The notes: generated by a model not told the origin, from the letters alone. Positions 5,432 to 10,715 are shown, counted from the first letter of the stretch. The stretch: DNA of 58,437 bases from a candidate division WWE3 bacterium UBA1379 (GCA_002305475.1 DBRB01000001.1:1-58437); one strand, 5' to 3'. Numbers and translations are program-made.

Positions 5432-6046
5432 ATGCTTATAAATTACCCGGTTGAGGATAGAACAATAAGCCAACATTTTGGCGTTGATAACACAAATGAC
5501 CCCGCTAAGGGGGATTTCTATACTGTATTTGGTAATAAACATCCTGGTGTGGACTTTCCCGTTCAGGAAGGCACCGAGGTTTTCGCTTCATTTCCGGGTA
5601 TTGTCGTAAGAAACGAGTACCACAAAGGGATGGGGAATGTCATAGGTATTAGGAATGGGAATATTGTGGCACTATATGCGCACTTGAGCGAAGCAACGAT
5701 TAAGGCTGGCCAAATAGTAAAAGACAGGGAATTGATTGGGCTATCTGGTGCGACAGGAGATGCCTGTTTAAGCCCGCACCTGCATTTTGAACTGAGAGAT
5801 ATTTCTAAACCGTCTCTAAAAGACATGGTATTTGAACCTATTTTTGGCAAAGAAATTCTGCAATACGCGGACACCTTTATTTATTCAGTAAACAACAAAA
5901 ATACCAAGAAAACATTAGTAAACCTTTCTAAACTGTACTATGGAACGGATTCATATTGGCAAAAGATTAACGAATCTAATGGTTTTGCATATGAAAAAGA
6001 TGAAATATTAAGCGATGGTCTTAGCGTTATTATCCCAAATTATTAG
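5432..6046 (+). CDS. M23 family metallopeptidase (LytM-type) with a LysM-like tail
   Basis: HPGVDF (HxxxD) and PHLHFE (HxH) motifs. The C-terminus resembles LysM (YGTDSYWQKINESNG). Confidence 0.7.
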   Translation: MLINYPVEDRTISQHFGVDNTNDPAKGDFYTVFGNKHPGVDFPVQEGTEVFASFPGIVVRNEYHKGMGNVIGIRNGNIVALYAHLSEATIKAGQIVKDRELIGLSGATGDACLSPHLHFELRDISKPSLKDMVFEPIFGKEILQYADTFIYSVNNKNTKKTLVNLSKLYYGTDSYWQKINESNGFAYEKDEILSDGLSVIIPNY

Positions 6047-6665
6047 CACTCAGCAGGTGATTAAAAAACTCGTAAGTAGGTTTGGAGTTATAAGCATATT
6101 CAAACTTTTCAAAAATACCCTCATCTTGATTAATACCCTTTATTGATTTGAGAAATTCGAGAAATTTATTCTTGCCGAAAGTATCCACCAGCAGCTTAAT
6201 AGCAAAGCCTGCCTCATTATAGTTTCTCTCATCTGTAAGGAATTTGGAAAACGCGTCCGGTACCTTGTATTTATCAAGCTGATCGGCAATAAACAAAGAT
6301 GTACCTTCAGTTAGCCAGTTTGGTTTTGTATGGTAGCAGATACTTCTGTAGAAACAATGACAGAGCTCATGCTTAATAAGTTTTTTAATATCATCTTCGT
6401 TATATTTATGCGTGCTCTCTTGTGCGATGTTGTCGGGGTTTAGGATTATTATTGCGTTTTTCGTCCAAGTCCAGCCTACGGACCAAGCAGGAGTTTCCTT
6501 TTCAAGAAATGAGTCGATAGTTTTTCGGTCATCCACAATGAAGATTTTTGGGGTGTCTTTTGCCCACTTAATATCAAAAAATTCGTTAAGATCTTGCATG
6601 GCCGTTTCATATGCCTCGTTTATTAATGTGTTTTCCTTGGAATGTATGCTGAAGGTTGGTATCAC
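6030..6665 (-). CDS. MA-clan (gluzincin-like) metallopeptidase-like protein
   Basis: HELCH (HExxH) followed 18 residues later by NWLTEG, the spacing seen in Peptidase_MA_2-type proteins. Overlaps the M23 gene end by 17 nt. Confidence 0.5.
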   Translation of the reverse strand: MIPTFSIHSKENTLINEAYETAMQDLNEFFDIKWAKDTPKIFIVDDRKTIDSFLEKETPAWSVGWTWTKNAIIILNPDNIAQESTHKYNEDDIKKLIKHELCHCFYRSICYHTKPNWLTEGTSLFIADQLDKYKVPDAFSKFLTDERNYNEAGFAIKLLVDTFGKNKFLEFLKSIKGINQDEGIFEKFEYAYNSKPTYEFFNHLLSANNLG

Positions 6666-6705
6666 GCAGTAATTATAAACTATTATGACTGAAAATGGAG
6701 GTGTG

Positions 6706-6745
6706 TTGATACTGAGCCATATTATAGGTATTTTGGTGATATAAT
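6706..6745 (+). promoter_or_regulatory. promoter candidates upstream of the small peptide gene
   Basis: TTGATA (6706-6711), 17 nt, TATTTT (6729-6734). An extended -10 TGaTATAAT lies at 6737-6745. Motif match only. Confidence 0.35.
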
Positions 6746-6808
6746 GTGTGCAGGATACAGCATGAGGATGATTCTGCTGTTGACAATCTACAGAAAGGAG
6801 AGTGCGTC

Positions 6809-6943
6809 ATGGCCGGTGAAAACATTCTTAAGGCCGAGATGGAAGCCATCCAAACCCAGACAGAAGCCGATGCCGCCTACAACGTCTACATTGACGATTA
6901 CGGCAATTATGGCAACTGGATGGACTGCAACGACTGGCATTAG
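6809..6943 (+). CDS. 44-aa candidate RiPP precursor peptide (MAGENILKAEMEAIQTQTEADAAYNVYIDDYGNYGNWMDCNDWH)
   Basis: ATG 6809 lies 8 nt after AAAGGAGAG. It is 113 nt upstream of, and on the same strand as, a radical SAM/SPASM gene. Helical acidic N-terminal part; aromatic, Asn/Asp-rich C-terminal part. Confidence 0.7.
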   Translation: MAGENILKAEMEAIQTQTEADAAYNVYIDDYGNYGNWMDCNDWH

Positions 6944-6971
6944 CCTGCTTGCCTGGCGACCATCGATAGAT

Positions 6972-7014
6972 AGAGGGAGGTAGGAAACCTTAAACAAGTA
7001 GCTTACCTTCCTCT
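6972..7014 (+). promoter_or_regulatory. intergenic stem-loop between peptide and maturase genes
   Basis: AGAGGGAGGTA (6972-6982) pairs with TACCTTCCTCT (7004-7014): 11 bp with one G-U that only pairs in a plus-strand RNA. 21-nt loop, no T-run after it. Confidence 0.5.
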
Positions 7015-7056
7015 GTCGTTCAACTCAAACGCTCAGAATCGGAAAAGGAGACAGAC

Positions 7057-7440
7057 ATGAAAGGCAAATTGGTCATCATGAAGCCTGTCTCAATCGCTTG
7101 CAACGGCAAGTGTGACTACTGCTACAATCTCTCCGTGAACTTCCGCACTCGTCGTGCAATTCCAAAGATGAGCGTGGAGACGGTAGAACGTGTAGAGCGT
7201 GGATTAATTGAGATAGGAATGGAACGCATACGACTGGTGTGGCACGGAGGTGAACCGCTCCTAAGAGGACTACCTTTCTATAAGGCAGTAATGGAGCAAC
7301 AGGCTCGGATTCGAGCTGAATACCCCGCCCTACGCCTGGAAAACGGTATGCAATCCAATCTAACCCGTCTCACGCCAGAGTGGTGCGAGTTTCTGAAGGC
7401 GAATCACATCATGGTCGGGAGCAGCCTCGATGGGTGGTAA
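7057..7440 (+). CDS. radical SAM enzyme, N-terminal part (AnSME-like core), ends at an in-frame TAA
   Basis: KPVSIACNGKCDYCY (CX3CX2C), GGEPLL, SSLDG motifs. GGAG lies upstream of ATG 7057. Same frame as 7483-8178. Confidence 0.75.
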   Translation: MKGKLVIMKPVSIACNGKCDYCYNLSVNFRTRRAIPKMSVETVERVERGLIEIGMERIRLVWHGGEPLLRGLPFYKAVMEQQARIRAEYPALRLENGMQSNLTRLTPEWCEFLKANHIMVGSSLDGW

Positions 7441-7482
7441 GAAGTACATGATGCCCACCGCAAATATCCCGACGGCACAGGT

Positions 7483-8178
7483 ATGTTCAACGACGCAATT
7501 CGTGGAATGGAACTGGCGAGTAAGTACGGCATCCTCGGCGGAATCATTGCTGTGGTAACCGACGTTACGGTCATGCAAGACCCCGCCAAGTTCTTCGACT
7601 ACCTGGTTAATGTATGTCCGAGAGCAGAAAATACGCCCTGCTGGGATGTGGGAAGCGATGGAGAAAAGCCCGCTTACACAGTAGAGAGCCAGGCGTTTCT
7701 CGACTTTACTACGGCAATGTTCGACCACTACTGGAAACTCGACGACCCGCAACGCAGGATGCGAATGTTTCACGGATTCATTCAGGGACTCCTGGGTGGC
7801 AAGGAACTTACTTGTTCATTCAAGGGAAACTGTGGTGACTTCCTGTCGGTGGAAGCTGACGGTAGCATCTATCCGTGTGGCAAGTTCTCTGGCGTACCTG
7901 AGTTCTATCTCGGCAATATCAATGAGCAGCCGTTGTCCGAGATTCTGGAAAATCCTGTGTACGAGGCATGGCTCAACCAGCGTTCCTGCATACCTCAGAA
8001 GTGTCAGGGTTGTAAGTTCGCCCAAGCCTGTAACAACGGTTGCACTTATGAGCGGTATCAAGGGAACGGTCAGTTCGCAGAGCTTTCTCCCTACTGCGAT
8101 GTGTGGTACGGTCTTTACGAGCATATCGGTGGTCGCATTACCGAACTTCAGACCGCACTCGAAGCACAGAAAGCCTAA
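7483..8178 (+). CDS. radical SAM enzyme, C-terminal part with SPASM domain (continuation of 7057-7440)
   Basis: CGDFLSVEADGSIYPCGKF and CQGCKFAQACNNGC (CX2CX5CX3C) SPASM signatures. In-frame codons 7441-7482 read EVHDAHRKYPDGTG, the expected DG-x4-HD-x2-R continuation. Confidence 0.75.
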   Translation: MFNDAIRGMELASKYGILGGIIAVVTDVTVMQDPAKFFDYLVNVCPRAENTPCWDVGSDGEKPAYTVESQAFLDFTTAMFDHYWKLDDPQRRMRMFHGFIQGLLGGKELTCSFKGNCGDFLSVEADGSIYPCGKFSGVPEFYLGNINEQPLSEILENPVYEAWLNQRSCIPQKCQGCKFAQACNNGCTYERYQGNGQFAELSPYCDVWYGLYEHIGGRITELQTALEAQKA

Positions 8179-8185
8179 GTTTGAA

Positions 8186-8234
8186 AGAGCCAGGTTTCAA
8201 AAACCTTGAGATCTGGCTCTAGTCTTTAATTTTT
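8186..8234 (+). terminator. terminator-like hairpin at the right edge of the GC-rich island
   Basis: AGAGCCAG (8186-8193) / CTGGCTCT (8213-8220) perfect 8 bp, 19-nt loop, followed by AGTCTTTAATTTTT. Confidence 0.45.
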
Positions 8235-8750
8235 ATGAAAAGAACACTTATCGAACCAACTAAATATATAAAAGAACTAATTAAACGTGAGAATGTAGGC
8301 AAAGGTGTAGTTGATATTTTAAAGTTCCAGAACAGTATTAAACTGGTGGATAAACACGAATTAATAAATAAACTTTTTAACCAGAGAACGGCGGAAGAAA
8401 TTTTAAAAGATGGTTTTGTAACCGGATGCACCGATGATGCCATTGTTTTTTTAGCACTCTTAAAGGCTCTAGGGGTAGAAGCTGTTTATGTTGAATCTCT
8501 CGAAAAAAGCTGGCTGGATGCACCTATGAATGAGCAGATGATTAGAGGACATGCATTTGTAAAAGTGGGAGAATTGTTAATCGACCCGCAACGTAAGGTA
8601 ATATACATAGATCCTAACTGGATAAAGAATCGTTACGTTATCTACGCAGAAGGAACCGAACCGTACGAATTTGGTTTAACAGGCTTCCGTGAGATGGTAC
8701 AAAAATTCATGGATTTCAAAGAATCTTACAAACAAAACAATAACAATTAA
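8235..8750 (+). CDS. transglutaminase-like cysteine peptidase superfamily protein
   Basis: Cys-His-Asp arrangement: GCTDDA ... RGHAFVKV ... LIDP, as in transglutaminase-core proteins. 171 aa. Confidence 0.5.
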   Translation: MKRTLIEPTKYIKELIKRENVGKGVVDILKFQNSIKLVDKHELINKLFNQRTAEEILKDGFVTGCTDDAIVFLALLKALGVEAVYVESLEKSWLDAPMNEQMIRGHAFVKVGELLIDPQRKVIYIDPNWIKNRYVIYAEGTEPYEFGLTGFREMVQKFMDFKESYKQNNNN

Positions 8751-8760
8751 TTATTTCCAG

Positions 8761-9051
8761 TTACATCAAGCCTAATTCACGCAGGAAACTTGGCAGAAAC
8801 ATATTTATAGCTGAAAGCGACATACCAATAATCGAAAGGTTTTTTAGTTTTGAAATCTGTTTAGTATCCAATATAAGTCTGTCTGATTTGGATAAAGCCA
8901 GTACGCAACCAGAATTTATCAATCCTAGCAATGGGCTTATCCAACTAACTAGGCATAAAAATGCCAACACGTTAGCAGTCCTAACGCTTTTTATATATTT
9001 TGAAAGAAATCCGCCTACCTTAATCCAGACGAAGAATAAAACCACTCTCAA
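8761..9051 (-). CDS. doubtful ORF (hydrophobic 96 aa, TTG start, no RBS)
   Basis: Only an alternative start codon, no Shine-Dalgarno, and a plus-strand hairpin plus T-run inside it. May be non-coding. Confidence 0.2.
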   Translation of the reverse strand: MRVVLFFVWIKVGGFLSKYIKSVRTANVLAFLCLVSWISPLLGLINSGCVLALSKSDRLILDTKQISKLKNLSIIGMSLSAINMFLPSFLRELGLM

Positions 9052-9129
9052 AGCAAGTTTGAGTGTTAGTAACTCATTTAGACTGATTAAATACTAAATT
9101 CCAAGTCCAACTAATACAGGAACAATTTT

Positions 9130-9282
9130 AAAAACTGTAGACTTTTTGTTTTCTTGCATGAATGCCTTTCCGGGTTGTCGAAATACAACAAGGGGCAACC
9201 CTCGTCTACAGCCGCTAAGCATTCAACCGCAGGGTTGCCCCTTGTTACGGTTGAATGCACCTTTCGGCTTTTAGCGGCTGTT
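9130..9282. other. GC-rich nested inverted-repeat element (candidate structured RNA switch or recombination site)
   Basis: Perfect helices: 9187-9202/9231-9246 (16 bp), 9208-9218/9271-9281 (11 bp), 9219-9229/9248-9258 (11 bp), 9135-9142/9204-9211 (8 bp). The first crosses the next two, so they are mutually exclusive. Confidence 0.55.
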
Positions 9283-9318
9283 AAATTATGAAATTATTAT
9301 ATCACCGGGGAAGGATAT

Positions 9319-9990
9319 TTAGTTAGATTTGGTGTTGTTAAGCAAAATCTTAACTTCCTTAACTTCGTTTACAACTGTTTTGTTTGATAGTTTTGATTTA
9401 ATAAATCTGGTGCTGTTTTGAACATACGTATTTTTATTATCCGGTGTATTGCTTATAGTTTCTTTTAGAAAAACTACTAGATCGTCGTATAACTTTTTCA
9501 AGTCAATGTAAATTATCAATGGATGCGGCAATTTAACACCACTAACAGATTTAACAGGCACGCCGTATTCTTCTATCTTGTGCGTGTTATGACCAAAGGT
9601 TAAATACCACGTGACTATTTGTAACCCAACCTCTATCTGAGCTGGTTCGTCCCCATGTATTAACGAGTGCCTATAGAGATGCATAAAGATGTTTGGAAAT
9701 GTGATGCCAAGTTTTGATAGTAACCAATCCCTTGAATTGATGCCTTTCTTTTTAGGCAATATTTGTGCAATGTGCTCGATTGTGGGAGTTAATAGCCGGA
9801 TCATGGCAAAATATCCGAACTGGTAATTATTAGCAGCAGCTAGTTGTAAATAGCTTCCGGTGTCTTTCTCCAGTCTTTGTAAAATACCATTCAATTCTTG
9901 TTTCAGGGACTTTTTGTACTTGTAATAAATGATGCCCCGATCCTTCGAACGTTGAAGTTTTCGGTTTTTATATTCCGGATGCCTTGCCAT
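9319..9990 (-). CDS. hypothetical protein with an Rx4H (HEPN-like) motif
   Basis: 223-aa ORF. LYRHSLIHG (R107-H112) fits the HEPN ribonuclease signature R-[NHD]-x3-H. Its start lies 2 nt after the stop of the upstream ATPase remnant. Confidence 0.45.
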   Translation of the reverse strand: MARHPEYKNRKLQRSKDRGIIYYKYKKSLKQELNGILQRLEKDTGSYLQLAAANNYQFGYFAMIRLLTPTIEHIAQILPKKKGINSRDWLLSKLGITFPNIFMHLYRHSLIHGDEPAQIEVGLQIVTWYLTFGHNTHKIEEYGVPVKSVSGVKLPHPLIIYIDLKKLYDDLVVFLKETISNTPDNKNTYVQNSTRFIKSKLSNKTVVNEVKEVKILLNNTKSN

Positions 9991-9992
9991 GG

Positions 9993-10470
9993 TTATTTTG
10001 CTTTCAGGCTGTATTTATATACTCTTTTGTTGAAAGCCTCTTCCCCGCCTTCAAGAATCTCACAAGCATGTTCTCTGATACCACATTTTTCTAAAACGCA
10101 ATCTACCTTAACTGTAGGCTTCGTGTTCTCTAATGATCCTGAACAATAGTCGAAAAGTTGTCCGTTTCTATTCTTTCGATCAGAATCGTGTCGGTTTGCC
10201 ACAATCAGTTGTTCTGCATCGGCGCCTACAACTAAATTGGCATTATGGCTAACCATTATTATTTGTCTTTCTTTTTTCTTTTCCTTTAAAAACGCGACAA
10301 TGCTTTCATAAATTGATCGACTATCCAAATCGTCTTCCGGCTGATCTATTAAAAGAGGCCATGTATCTGTCGATTCATCTCAGAAGTATTAAACCTTGAA
10401 ACTGAACGAGTCGGAATGGAAGAATGCTTTGTCTGTGCAGAAAACGGCGTGTTGAAAAATATCGTTCCTA
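9993..10470 (-). pseudogene. 5'-truncated, frameshifted ABC/SMC-type (RecF/OLD-like) ATPase remnant
   Basis: Only the C-terminal part survives: WPLLIDQPEDDLD (Walker B/D-loop), QIIMVSHNANLV (H-loop), ILEGGEEAF tail. A TGA lies just upstream in frame, and a signature-like FSAQTK is in another frame. It runs up to the tRNA-Phe 3' end. Confidence 0.6.
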
Positions 10471-10472
10471 CA

Positions 10473-10548
10473 TGGTGGAGCAGGTGGGAATCGAACCCAC
10501 ATAGCCGGTTTTTCAGACCGGTGCCGTGACCAACTTGGCTACCGCTCC
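10473..10548 (-). tRNA. tRNA-Phe (anticodon GAA), CCA encoded
   Basis: Reverse complement is GGAGCGGTAGCCAAGTTGGTCACGGCACCGGTCTGAAAAACCGG...GGTTCGATTCCCACCTGCTCCACCA. Anticodon loop CTGAAAA. Confidence 0.85.
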
Positions 10549-10639: not shown

Positions 10640-10715
10640 TGGAGCGAGAGACGGGGCTCGAACCCGCGACCTTCTCCATGGCAAGGAGATGCTCTACCAA
10701 TTGAGCTACTCTCGC
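10640..10715 (-). tRNA. tRNA-Gly (anticodon GCC), CCA encoded
   Basis: Reverse complement is GCGAGAGTAGCTCAATTGGTAGAGCATCTCCTTGCCATGGAGA...GGTTCGAGCCCCGTCTCTCGCTCCA. Confidence 0.9.

Follow-up and report, generated by a model that had tools for sequence, protein, structure and literature searches.

The question raised by this locus is whether a dense nest of complementary segments, at positions 9130-9282 of a 58,437-nucleotide stretch from a candidate division WWE3 bacterium (the whole of that stretch is called the window here), acts as RNA or as DNA, and to what end. An earlier note, drawn up from the sequence alone, had described three perfect helices in the order A-B-C-A′-C′-B′ and had proposed a switch or attenuator, a guide- or retron-like RNA, or a DNA recombination substrate. 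To answer the question, we examined the helices themselves, their genomic setting, their homologues, and the folds that these homologues have in common.

Interleaved helices of the window and their minus-strand layout

Every pairing that had been described was present in the window sequence without a mismatch. A (9187-9202) pairs with A′ (9231-9246) over 16 bp, B (9208-9218) with B′ (9271-9281) over 11 bp, and C (9219-9229) with C′ (9248-9258) over 11 bp, and positions 9135-9142 pair with 9204-9211 over 8 bp, all four being 100% complementary. Direct reading also confirmed a pair formed by GGGTTG and CAACCC (9172-9177 with 9196-9201) and an imperfect direct repeat (9159-9173 and 9252-9267). 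Stacked on each other, B and C make up a 22-bp helix interrupted by a 12-nt bulge. On the minus strand, this bulge folds into a CC-GAAA-GG mini-hairpin, which was read directly and is also present in the minus-strand fold. A′ occupies the loop closed by the B/C helix, to which it is joined by a 1-nt linker on each side, and A lies outside the helix, 5 nt away. Because A′ fills the B/C loop with such short linkers and A is outside, the A′/A fold and the B/C fold cannot fully coexist; the interleaved topology with mutually exclusive folds, as first described, was thus borne out, with linkers of 1 and 5 nt.

Both strands, when folded, were more stable than their shuffles, the plus strand at −56.7 kcal/mol (z = −4.3) and the minus strand at −61.3 kcal/mol (z = −5.5, with none of 200 shuffles as stable). 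The window copy folds well on both strands because all of its pairs are Watson-Crick, and in this respect only it is unusual in the family described below. No further occurrence of arms A, B, or C was found in the 58-kb window, and a covariance model built for the family detected no second copy there.

Read on the minus strand, the segments take up the order of an mRNA leader. An extended −10 promoter, GTGATATAAT (9296-9305, with TATAAT at 9301-9296), is followed after a 14-nt spacer from the −10 box by the foot of the first helix, P1, at 9281, and the predicted transcription start would be at ∼9289, ∼8 nt before 9281. The P1 5′ strand, ACAGCCGCUAA (B′, 9271-9281), pairs with 9208-9218. The J12 junction (9259-9270), which is the 12-nt bulge with its side hairpin closed by a GNRA tetraloop, separates it from the P2 5′ strand, GCAUUCAACCG (C′, 9248-9258), which pairs with 9219-9229. 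The apical loop (9230-9247) contains element 3, with its core AAGGGGCAACCCU at 9243-9231 and A′ at 9246-9231, and in the minus-strand fold and by RNAalifold this loop alone can form a hairpin, AGGG-GCAA-CCCU. The stalk is completed by the P2 3′ strand, CGGUUGAAUGC (C, 9219-9229), and the P1 3′ strand, UUAGCGGCUGU (B, 9208-9218), and a linker, AGACG (9207-9203), leads to element 3′, AGGGUUGCCCCUUGUU (A, 9187-9202), the perfect 16-bp complement of the apical loop at 9231-9246. Directly 3′ of the helix formed by elements 3 and 3′ (the 3:3′ helix) is a U-rich tail, GUUGUAUUUCG (9179-9189), which may be a terminator U-tract. It is followed by ACAACCC (9178-9172), which repeats part of element 3 and is able to pair with GGGUUG at 9201-9196, by a Shine-Dalgarno (SD) sequence, GGAAAGG (9171-9165), and by CAUUC and an AUG start codon (9159-9157). 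By our own reading of the window sequence, the sole ORF within the leader starts with GUG and has no usable SD spacing, and a leader peptide was therefore not found.

The gene that follows the leader encodes a 132-aa predicted membrane protein (8761-9159, minus strand) that matches no Pfam family. In the window it is truncated by a TAG at codon 22 (9096-9094), which results from a single substitution at 9094; the ORF is intact in L003 and L004, two contigs from other samples that are 99.7% and 98.3% identical to the window and carry an identical element. The window and L003 differ at 14 positions, two of which create stops. One is that at 9094 in the post-leader gene, and the other is a CAA-to-TAA change at 7438, which splits a radical-SAM/SPASM gene (7057-8178, plus strand) that is intact, with 373 aa, in L003. 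This gene lies in a GC-rich island (6700-8200, 50-54% in a genome of ∼35% GC), directly downstream of a 44-aa ORF (6809-6943, plus strand) ending in ...YIDDYGNYGNWMDCNDWH. The pair looks like a RiPP precursor with its maturase and is flanked by a metallopeptidase-like gene (6030-6665) and a weakly transglutaminase-like gene (8235-8750).

Directly upstream of the element is a gene for a 223-aa protein without a family (9319-9990, minus strand). We rejected a link between the element and this gene, given that a 74%-identical homologue in L007 lacks the element. Homologues with 90% identity are found on two independent contigs, L005 (2270-2279) and L006 (1049-1062), both of which end 10-13 nt past the stop codon; as these ends coincide with the would-be start of the leader, they may reflect an assembly break caused by the palindromes. 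Farther upstream are a 111-aa C-terminal fragment of a Ppl-like defence ATPase (9993-10328, minus strand; PADLOC E = 7e-9), which matches only positions 813-889 of the 894 in the Ppl profile, and the genes for tRNA-Phe (10473-10548) and tRNA-Gly (10640-10715), both on the minus strand. The Ppl remnant beside the two tRNA genes suggests a decayed defence or integrative island; direct repeats of the tRNA ends that would mark att sites were not found in the window.

These surroundings bear on two of the identities that had been proposed. A retron or guide RNA was not supported, as the eight ORFs scanned at 6030-10328 include no reverse transcriptase or nuclease gene and the repeats are interleaved, not nested; specifically, a retron msr-msd was rejected after Pfam and PADLOC analysis of these ORFs returned no reverse transcriptase and a1/a2-type nesting was found to be absent. 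An invertible DNA switch was also discarded, since no recombinase is encoded by the scanned ORFs and the A arms enclose only 28 bp. Nor was a DNA recombination substrate supported: the element is configured identically in six assemblies (the window, L003, L004, L008, L009, and L010) without inversion variants, and the ORFs scanned near it in the window include no recombinase gene.

We compared the locus with a syntenic relative. The 132-aa protein has one other cluster, 87% identical, which is encoded on contigs L008, L009, and L010. These contigs keep the gene order of the window, with an overall nucleotide identity of 83.9%. From 9305 to 9130, identity to this relative was 93-98% in 60-nt windows, compared to 57-72% just upstream and 75% just downstream. 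The block conserved with L008 starts exactly at the −10 box, and sequences farther upstream diverge; the ACAACCC segment, the SD sequence, the CAUUC spacer, and the start codon are identical in L008. One substitution of the L008 type converts a G-C pair in the middle of the A:A′ helix to G·U, which pairs on the minus-strand RNA only.

A family of leaders with a common architecture

Comparison of sequences from other sources identified the element as one of a previously uncatalogued family of structured 5′ leader RNAs, encoded in the window on the minus strand. The family occurs in mobile-element regions of bacteria of the candidate phyla radiation type, where each leader separates a promoter from the gene for a small membrane protein. 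The earlier note had called for a search for copies in relatives and had held that an element without homologues or covariation would speak against its reading; we found 10 distinct members, with a single copy in the 58-kb window, and P1 and P2 covary among them. These comprise the window, one syntenic relative, four members from a DNA pattern scan, and four obtained via protein homology, and they represent only about five or six lineages. The pattern scan of metagenomes, in which the A-arm cores were allowed a gap of variable length between them, yielded a total of seven stretches. Five (L011, L012, L013, L015, and L017) have the same architecture with different stalks, and L013 is identical to L011, which leaves four distinct members; L014 and L016 were rejected as chance palindromes. 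A scan of genome contigs yielded one further L011-type copy, L042, from a Ca. Paceibacterota MAG, and the L011 lineage (Ca. Paceibacterota/Pacebacteria) is the sole named lineage in the family.

The remaining four members came from a search that avoids the bias of the search pattern, in which homologues of the 153-aa protein encoded downstream of the L011 copy were collected and their contigs were fetched. The leader was present in four of the seven contigs, namely, L138 (protein 64% identical), L139 (58%), L143 (57%), and L147 (53%), and was absent from L144, L146, and L148. An exact 21-mer scan of genome contigs gave no match, nor did scans of viral contigs or BLASTN searches of plasmids with the element and a copy of the REPIN-like repeat described below as queries. 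The earlier note had matched the element to no RNA family, and no Rfam family matched it here. The whole window had no gathering-score match to Rfam except for tRNAs, a search of 8700-9700 against Rfam 15 at E up to 10 gave chance-level hits only (mir-90 at 15 bits and rli22 at 20 bits), and other family leaders had no match even at a permissive E of 5-10 (window plus 20 other loci).

All 10 members have exactly one TGnTAnAAT/TATACT box on the sense strand, 17-25 nt before P1. P1 and the start codon lie 122-157 nt apart, and 5-11 nt separate the end of the stalk from element 3′. The U positions of the tail are kept in each member (consensus CCCUUKUURUWU), and a co-oriented ORF starts 19-36 nt past the tail in 10/10, with a recognisable SD sequence in nine. 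Element 3′, with the consensus AGGGUUGYCCCUU, complements the apical loop in all 10, and the core of that loop is nearly invariant in the whole set, including the four members found without it as a pattern. J12 is a 9- to 26-nt bulge in the other members; it is not conserved in sequence and in some of them forms GNRA-capped hairpins such as AGC-GAAA-GCU in L012 and CCUC-GUAA-GAGG in L015. Most of the sequence conservation falls in element 3, element 3′, and the tail. The loop and its complement vary less than pairing alone would require, which suggests that a protein or an RNA recognises them by sequence or that they have a tertiary role.

The same features could be read as an independent minus-strand small RNA gene of ∼105-125 nt, with its own promoter, an end at the U-rich tract, the apical loop as a seed or protein site, and the ORF as a mere neighbour. 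The promoter directly ahead of P1, the conserved U-rich tract past the last helix, and the conservation of the primary sequence of the loop and complement beyond the needs of pairing would all agree with this reading, as would the lack of homology between the downstream proteins of different subfamilies. However, we consider it unlikely, because the co-oriented ORF follows the tail so closely in every member with no second extended −10 box between them, because the leader stays with the gene for the 153-aa protein even in homologues of only 53-64% identity, and because no canonical terminator was called in the window, L015, or L139.

At 63-153 aa, the proteins encoded downstream of the leaders are small; they carry a transmembrane segment at the N terminus and show no homology between subfamilies. 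None belongs to a significant Pfam family, and an AlphaFold model of the 153-aa family (pLDDT 75) had no significant match in the PDB. In L011, L138, L139, L143, and L017, the leader is divergent from a serine-recombinase operon. In L139 (1007-1243), L138 (1099-1286), and L011 (6901-7060), three to five direct repeats of iteron type, ∼45-54 nt apart and with the core GCGACTnnAAAAACTnn, sit between this operon and the leader promoter; they may be operators or a mobile-element origin. From the operon and the repeats, we conclude that the setting of these copies is a mobile element. The window copy lies in the decayed island adjoining the tRNA genes.

Covariation was assessed in a structure-guided alignment of the 10 members that was fitted by hand. 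P1 (14 pairs) was 100% paired, with two-sided changes at 7/14 pairs, and P2 (11 pairs) was 100% paired, with two-sided changes at 10/11, so that compensatory changes were found at 17 of the 25 stalk pairs. The loop:3′ (3:3′) helix, with 16 pairs, was 95% paired. The ten pairs at its centre hardly vary, and this holds also for the four members found independently of the pattern; changes include a G·U for G-C in nine of the ten (column 62/124), a U-A to C-G change in L139, and a C-G to U·G change in L147, and the pair just outside the search pattern occurs as four types (AU, CG, GU, and UG). None of 500 column shuffles matched the observed pairing values, and sliding the partners by 1-3 columns lowered pairing to 33-54%. 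Because the structural alignment was fitted by hand, RNAalifold was run on unguided MAFFT alignments, which partly offsets this. For the full leader, it returned P1, P2, the apical GGG-GCAA-CCC hairpin, and a small local 3′ hairpin, with compensatory changes in 14 of 28 pairs; when the 5′ half of the stalk was removed, the consensus was a 14-bp loop:3′ helix.

Several lines of evidence indicate the strand. With the covariance model, the members scored 67-91 bits on the sense strand versus 21-34 bits on the antisense strand, and the window scored 80 bits on the minus strand versus 32 bits on the plus strand. Both tetraloops, GAAA and GCAA, are of the GNRA type on the minus strand only, and the G·U pairs would read A·C on the opposite strand. 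Together with the promoter upstream and the ribosome-binding site (RBS) and ORF downstream, these data place the RNA on the minus strand. Among the readings first offered for the locus, the one that comparative evidence supports is that of two mutually exclusive folds serving as a switch or attenuator, by virtue of the homologues, the conservation of both helices, and the covariation of P1 and P2; the others were not supported.

Two competing folds and a model for gene control

Taken together, these data make it probable that the element is the 5′ leader of a minus-strand mRNA and acts in cis as a two-state riboregulator, either an attenuator or a switch, of an uncatalogued family. The comparison shows the helices with their conservation and covariation, the strand, and the arrangement of promoter and ORF. 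The promoter itself, the 5′ end, and termination are predictions from the sequence, and we infer transcription, the terminator function, the direction of the switch, and its trigger in the form of the following model. The mRNA would start at the extended −10 promoter ∼8 nt before 9281 and run into the membrane-protein gene (AUG at 9159). In the first state, fold H, P1 and P2 would form a 22-bp stalk with the bulge and side hairpin as a hinge-like element between them and AAGGGGCAACCCU in the apical loop, and the gene would be expressed. In the second, fold T, the apical loop would pair over 13-16 bp with the downstream AGGGUUGYCCCUU, with the U-rich tract directly after it. The loop:3′ helix would form once a factor had made the 5′ half of the stalk unavailable for pairing or had bound the apical loop, and it would end transcription at the U-tract or rearrange the ribosome-binding region and so turn the gene off.

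In every member, the stability of fold H exceeds that of fold T by 6.8-18.9 kcal/mol. Since it is more stable and would also be formed first during transcription, fold H is the presumed default, and since the difference is so large, fold T would need a helper factor to form. The strong preference for fold H in every member is also what would be expected of a constitutive structural 5′ UTR that does not switch, be it an mRNA-protecting 5′ stalk or a compact pseudoknotted fold. P1 begins a few nucleotides from the predicted 5′ end, and P1 and P2 are alike in length, such that the hinge could fold the loop toward the 3′ element. We nevertheless regard such a UTR as very improbable: it leaves unexplained why a 13-nt loop and its exact complement are invariant while the stalk sequence drifts, and in the window, with a linker of 1 nt at either end of the loop, steric constraints keep all 16 bp of the loop pairing from forming while P2 is intact.

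In the two-state model, the loop:3′ helix could act as a terminator because it ends right at the U-rich tract. The putative terminator would consist of the 13- to 16-bp helix followed by the conserved CCCUUKUURUWU tract. It is atypical in having a 28- to 40-nt loop, and a simple terminator scan of the window, L015, and L139 called no canonical terminator.

Alternative pairings were also considered as a route to control of translation. In the window, the P2 3′ strand could pair with GGCAUUCA at the RBS and start codon (9167-9160), without statistical support; UGAAUGCUU can pair with AAGGCAUUCA, and GGGUUG can pair with CAACCC. In L012, the 3′ strand of P1 can pair with the SD sequence. Statistics over the whole family lent these pairings no support. 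The 8-bp pairing of the window joins GUCUACAG, in codons 6-8 of the ORF (9135-9142), to its complement CUGUAGAC at the end of P1 and in the linker (9211-9204); it is perfect and is kept in L008, and no equivalent was supported in other family members. We rejected sequestration of the SD sequence or RBS by element 3′ or by the 3′ half of the stalk, as the pairings occur in several members with z scores that are mostly weak (−0.03 to −3.3).

With regard to the trigger, J12 and the loop flanks vary in both sequence and length among the members, and no conserved unpaired junction nucleotides of the kind that would form a ligand pocket were found; a metabolite-sensing riboswitch is therefore not indicated. 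A countertranscript-controlled attenuator was rejected on the grounds that none of the 10 members has an extended −10 box on the antisense strand, in a search limited to promoters of the extended −10 type.

A core shared with REPIN-like repeats and comparison with known systems

The scan of genome contigs also returned at least 120 loci (L018-L137) that carry a GTAG-tagged palindromic repeat, GTAGGGGCAACCCTTGTGGTTGCCC...GGGCAACCACAAGGGTTGCCCCTAC, for example, at L018 1826-1881, L054 1525-1576, and L065 5852-5914. The repeat takes the form GTAGGGGCAACCCT-TGTGGTTGCCC-loop-GGGCAACCACA-AGGGTTGCCCCTAC and is found in Chloroflexia, Bacteroidota, Thiotrichaceae, Chlorobiales, Nitrospira, Saccharibacteria, and others, with ∼20 copies in one Chloroflexia MAG and often with genome-specific outer inverted repeats. 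Among the matches listed, 115 of 120 loci have the GTAG tag (GTAGGGG) and 109 of 120 are simple hairpins, and no recurrent neighbouring protein was seen at the 120 matches listed. The repeat has no Rfam family. These loci fit the descriptions of GTAG-tagged REP doublets or REPINs (PMC3733652, PMC3116915), repeats that are mobilised by RAYT transposases (PMC3733652, PMC3116915, PMC3337134).

The leader family resembles these repeats in having their exact core, AGGGGCAACCCT, and its complement, and it is unlikely that this shared 12-nt core and complement are a coincidence; they may reflect a common origin or a common partner. In contrast to the repeats, the window element, which reads ACAAGGGG...CCCCUUGU, has no GTAG (or CGTC) tag at the foot of the palindrome, is single copy in the 58-kb window, has interleaved arms and a strand-specific promoter and RBS layout, and scores far higher with the family model than any of the REPIN-like copies. 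Because the REPIN-like copies reach only 20-30 bits with the leader model, we treat them as distinct from the leader family.

The shared core raises the alternative that the element functions as DNA, either as a decayed or rearranged REP/REPIN palindrome or as a strand-specific structure that a mobile element forms in single-stranded DNA (a single-strand origin, an oriT, or a recombinase site, for example). The abundance of the tagged repeat in many phyla, the Watson-Crick pairing throughout the window copy by which both strands can fold, the serine-recombinase genes adjoining at least five members (L011, L138, L139, L143, and L017) with iteron-like repeats near three (L011, L138, and L139), and the location of the window copy in a tRNA-adjacent island would be compatible with such a function. 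We judge it to be highly unlikely, however. The tag is missing from the one copy in 58 kb, the topology is interleaved as opposed to the simple hairpin of 109 of the 120 REPIN-like copies listed, the 20-30 bits of these copies compare with 67-91 for the members, and the position of the element is fixed relative to the promoter and start codon. Moreover, the six assemblies share one configuration without inversions, and no recombinase gene is near the window copy.

A more specific form of the two-state riboregulator can be put forward tentatively, and it is rather doubtful as a whole. The element might be an undescribed riboregulator of integrative elements in candidate phyla radiation (CPR) bacteria, whose invariant 13-nt loop and 3′ complement derive from a GTAG-tagged REP repeat. 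On sensing a trans-acting factor (a protein, an RNA, or an ion), it would choose between a 22- to 25-bp hinged stalk and a loop-to-tail terminator or pseudoknot, and would thereby control the small envelope proteins of the integrative element. The exact occurrence of the 12-nt core in a REPIN-like repeat of multiple phyla is a hint that mobile palindromes may come to serve as regulatory RNA modules. The strong covariation, the clear promoter-leader-gene layout, and the unusual, exact complementarity of the apical loop to a downstream segment make the family a ready candidate for experiments.

The literature that we searched by sequence and by topic contained nothing relevant to the motif and no description of RNA-based regulation in bacteria of the candidate phyla radiation or in their mobile elements. 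Established systems of other origin offer comparisons. In the guanidine-IV riboswitch, contact between two hairpin loops controls a terminator. The HMP-PP (thiS) riboswitch is described as having an aptamer embedded in the terminator (PMC6478431). The leader is like attenuators and riboswitch expression platforms in that it lies in 5′ position between promoter and gene, has two conserved incompatible folds, and has one helix that ends at a U-rich tract just ahead of the RBS. The 5′ UTR position, with the promoter predicted from sequence only, was seen in 10/10 members, and the two conserved, mutually exclusive helices are P1/P2 and 3:3′, each of which RNAalifold recovered in the matching context. 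The leader differs from these systems in having no Rfam match and no conserved junction nucleotides for a ligand pocket, in pairing its apical loop with a 3′ segment over 13-16 bp to give a putative terminator with a 28- to 40-nt loop, and in preceding genes for uncharacterised small membrane proteins.

Hairpins bound by antitermination proteins offer a second comparison, as exemplified by the boxB hairpin of λ nut with N protein and the RAT hairpin with BglG or SacY. The likeness is in the small, invariant, GNRA-capped leader hairpin (AGGG-GCAA-CCCU) that overlaps a strand of the putative terminator. The leader is unlike boxB and RAT in that it has no candidate binding protein and no boxA-like element and carries its hairpin at the tip of a long covarying stalk.

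Finally, attenuation driven by countertranscripts controls plasmid replication in pT181, pIP501, and pAMβ1. Our leader family differs from these in that its 10 members have no antisense promoter of the extended −10 type and in that the controlled gene is not rep. It resembles them in that the leader is on a mobile element and a default fold would prevent terminator formation, and in that capture of the 5′ part of the leader would give rise to a terminator just upstream of the RBS.
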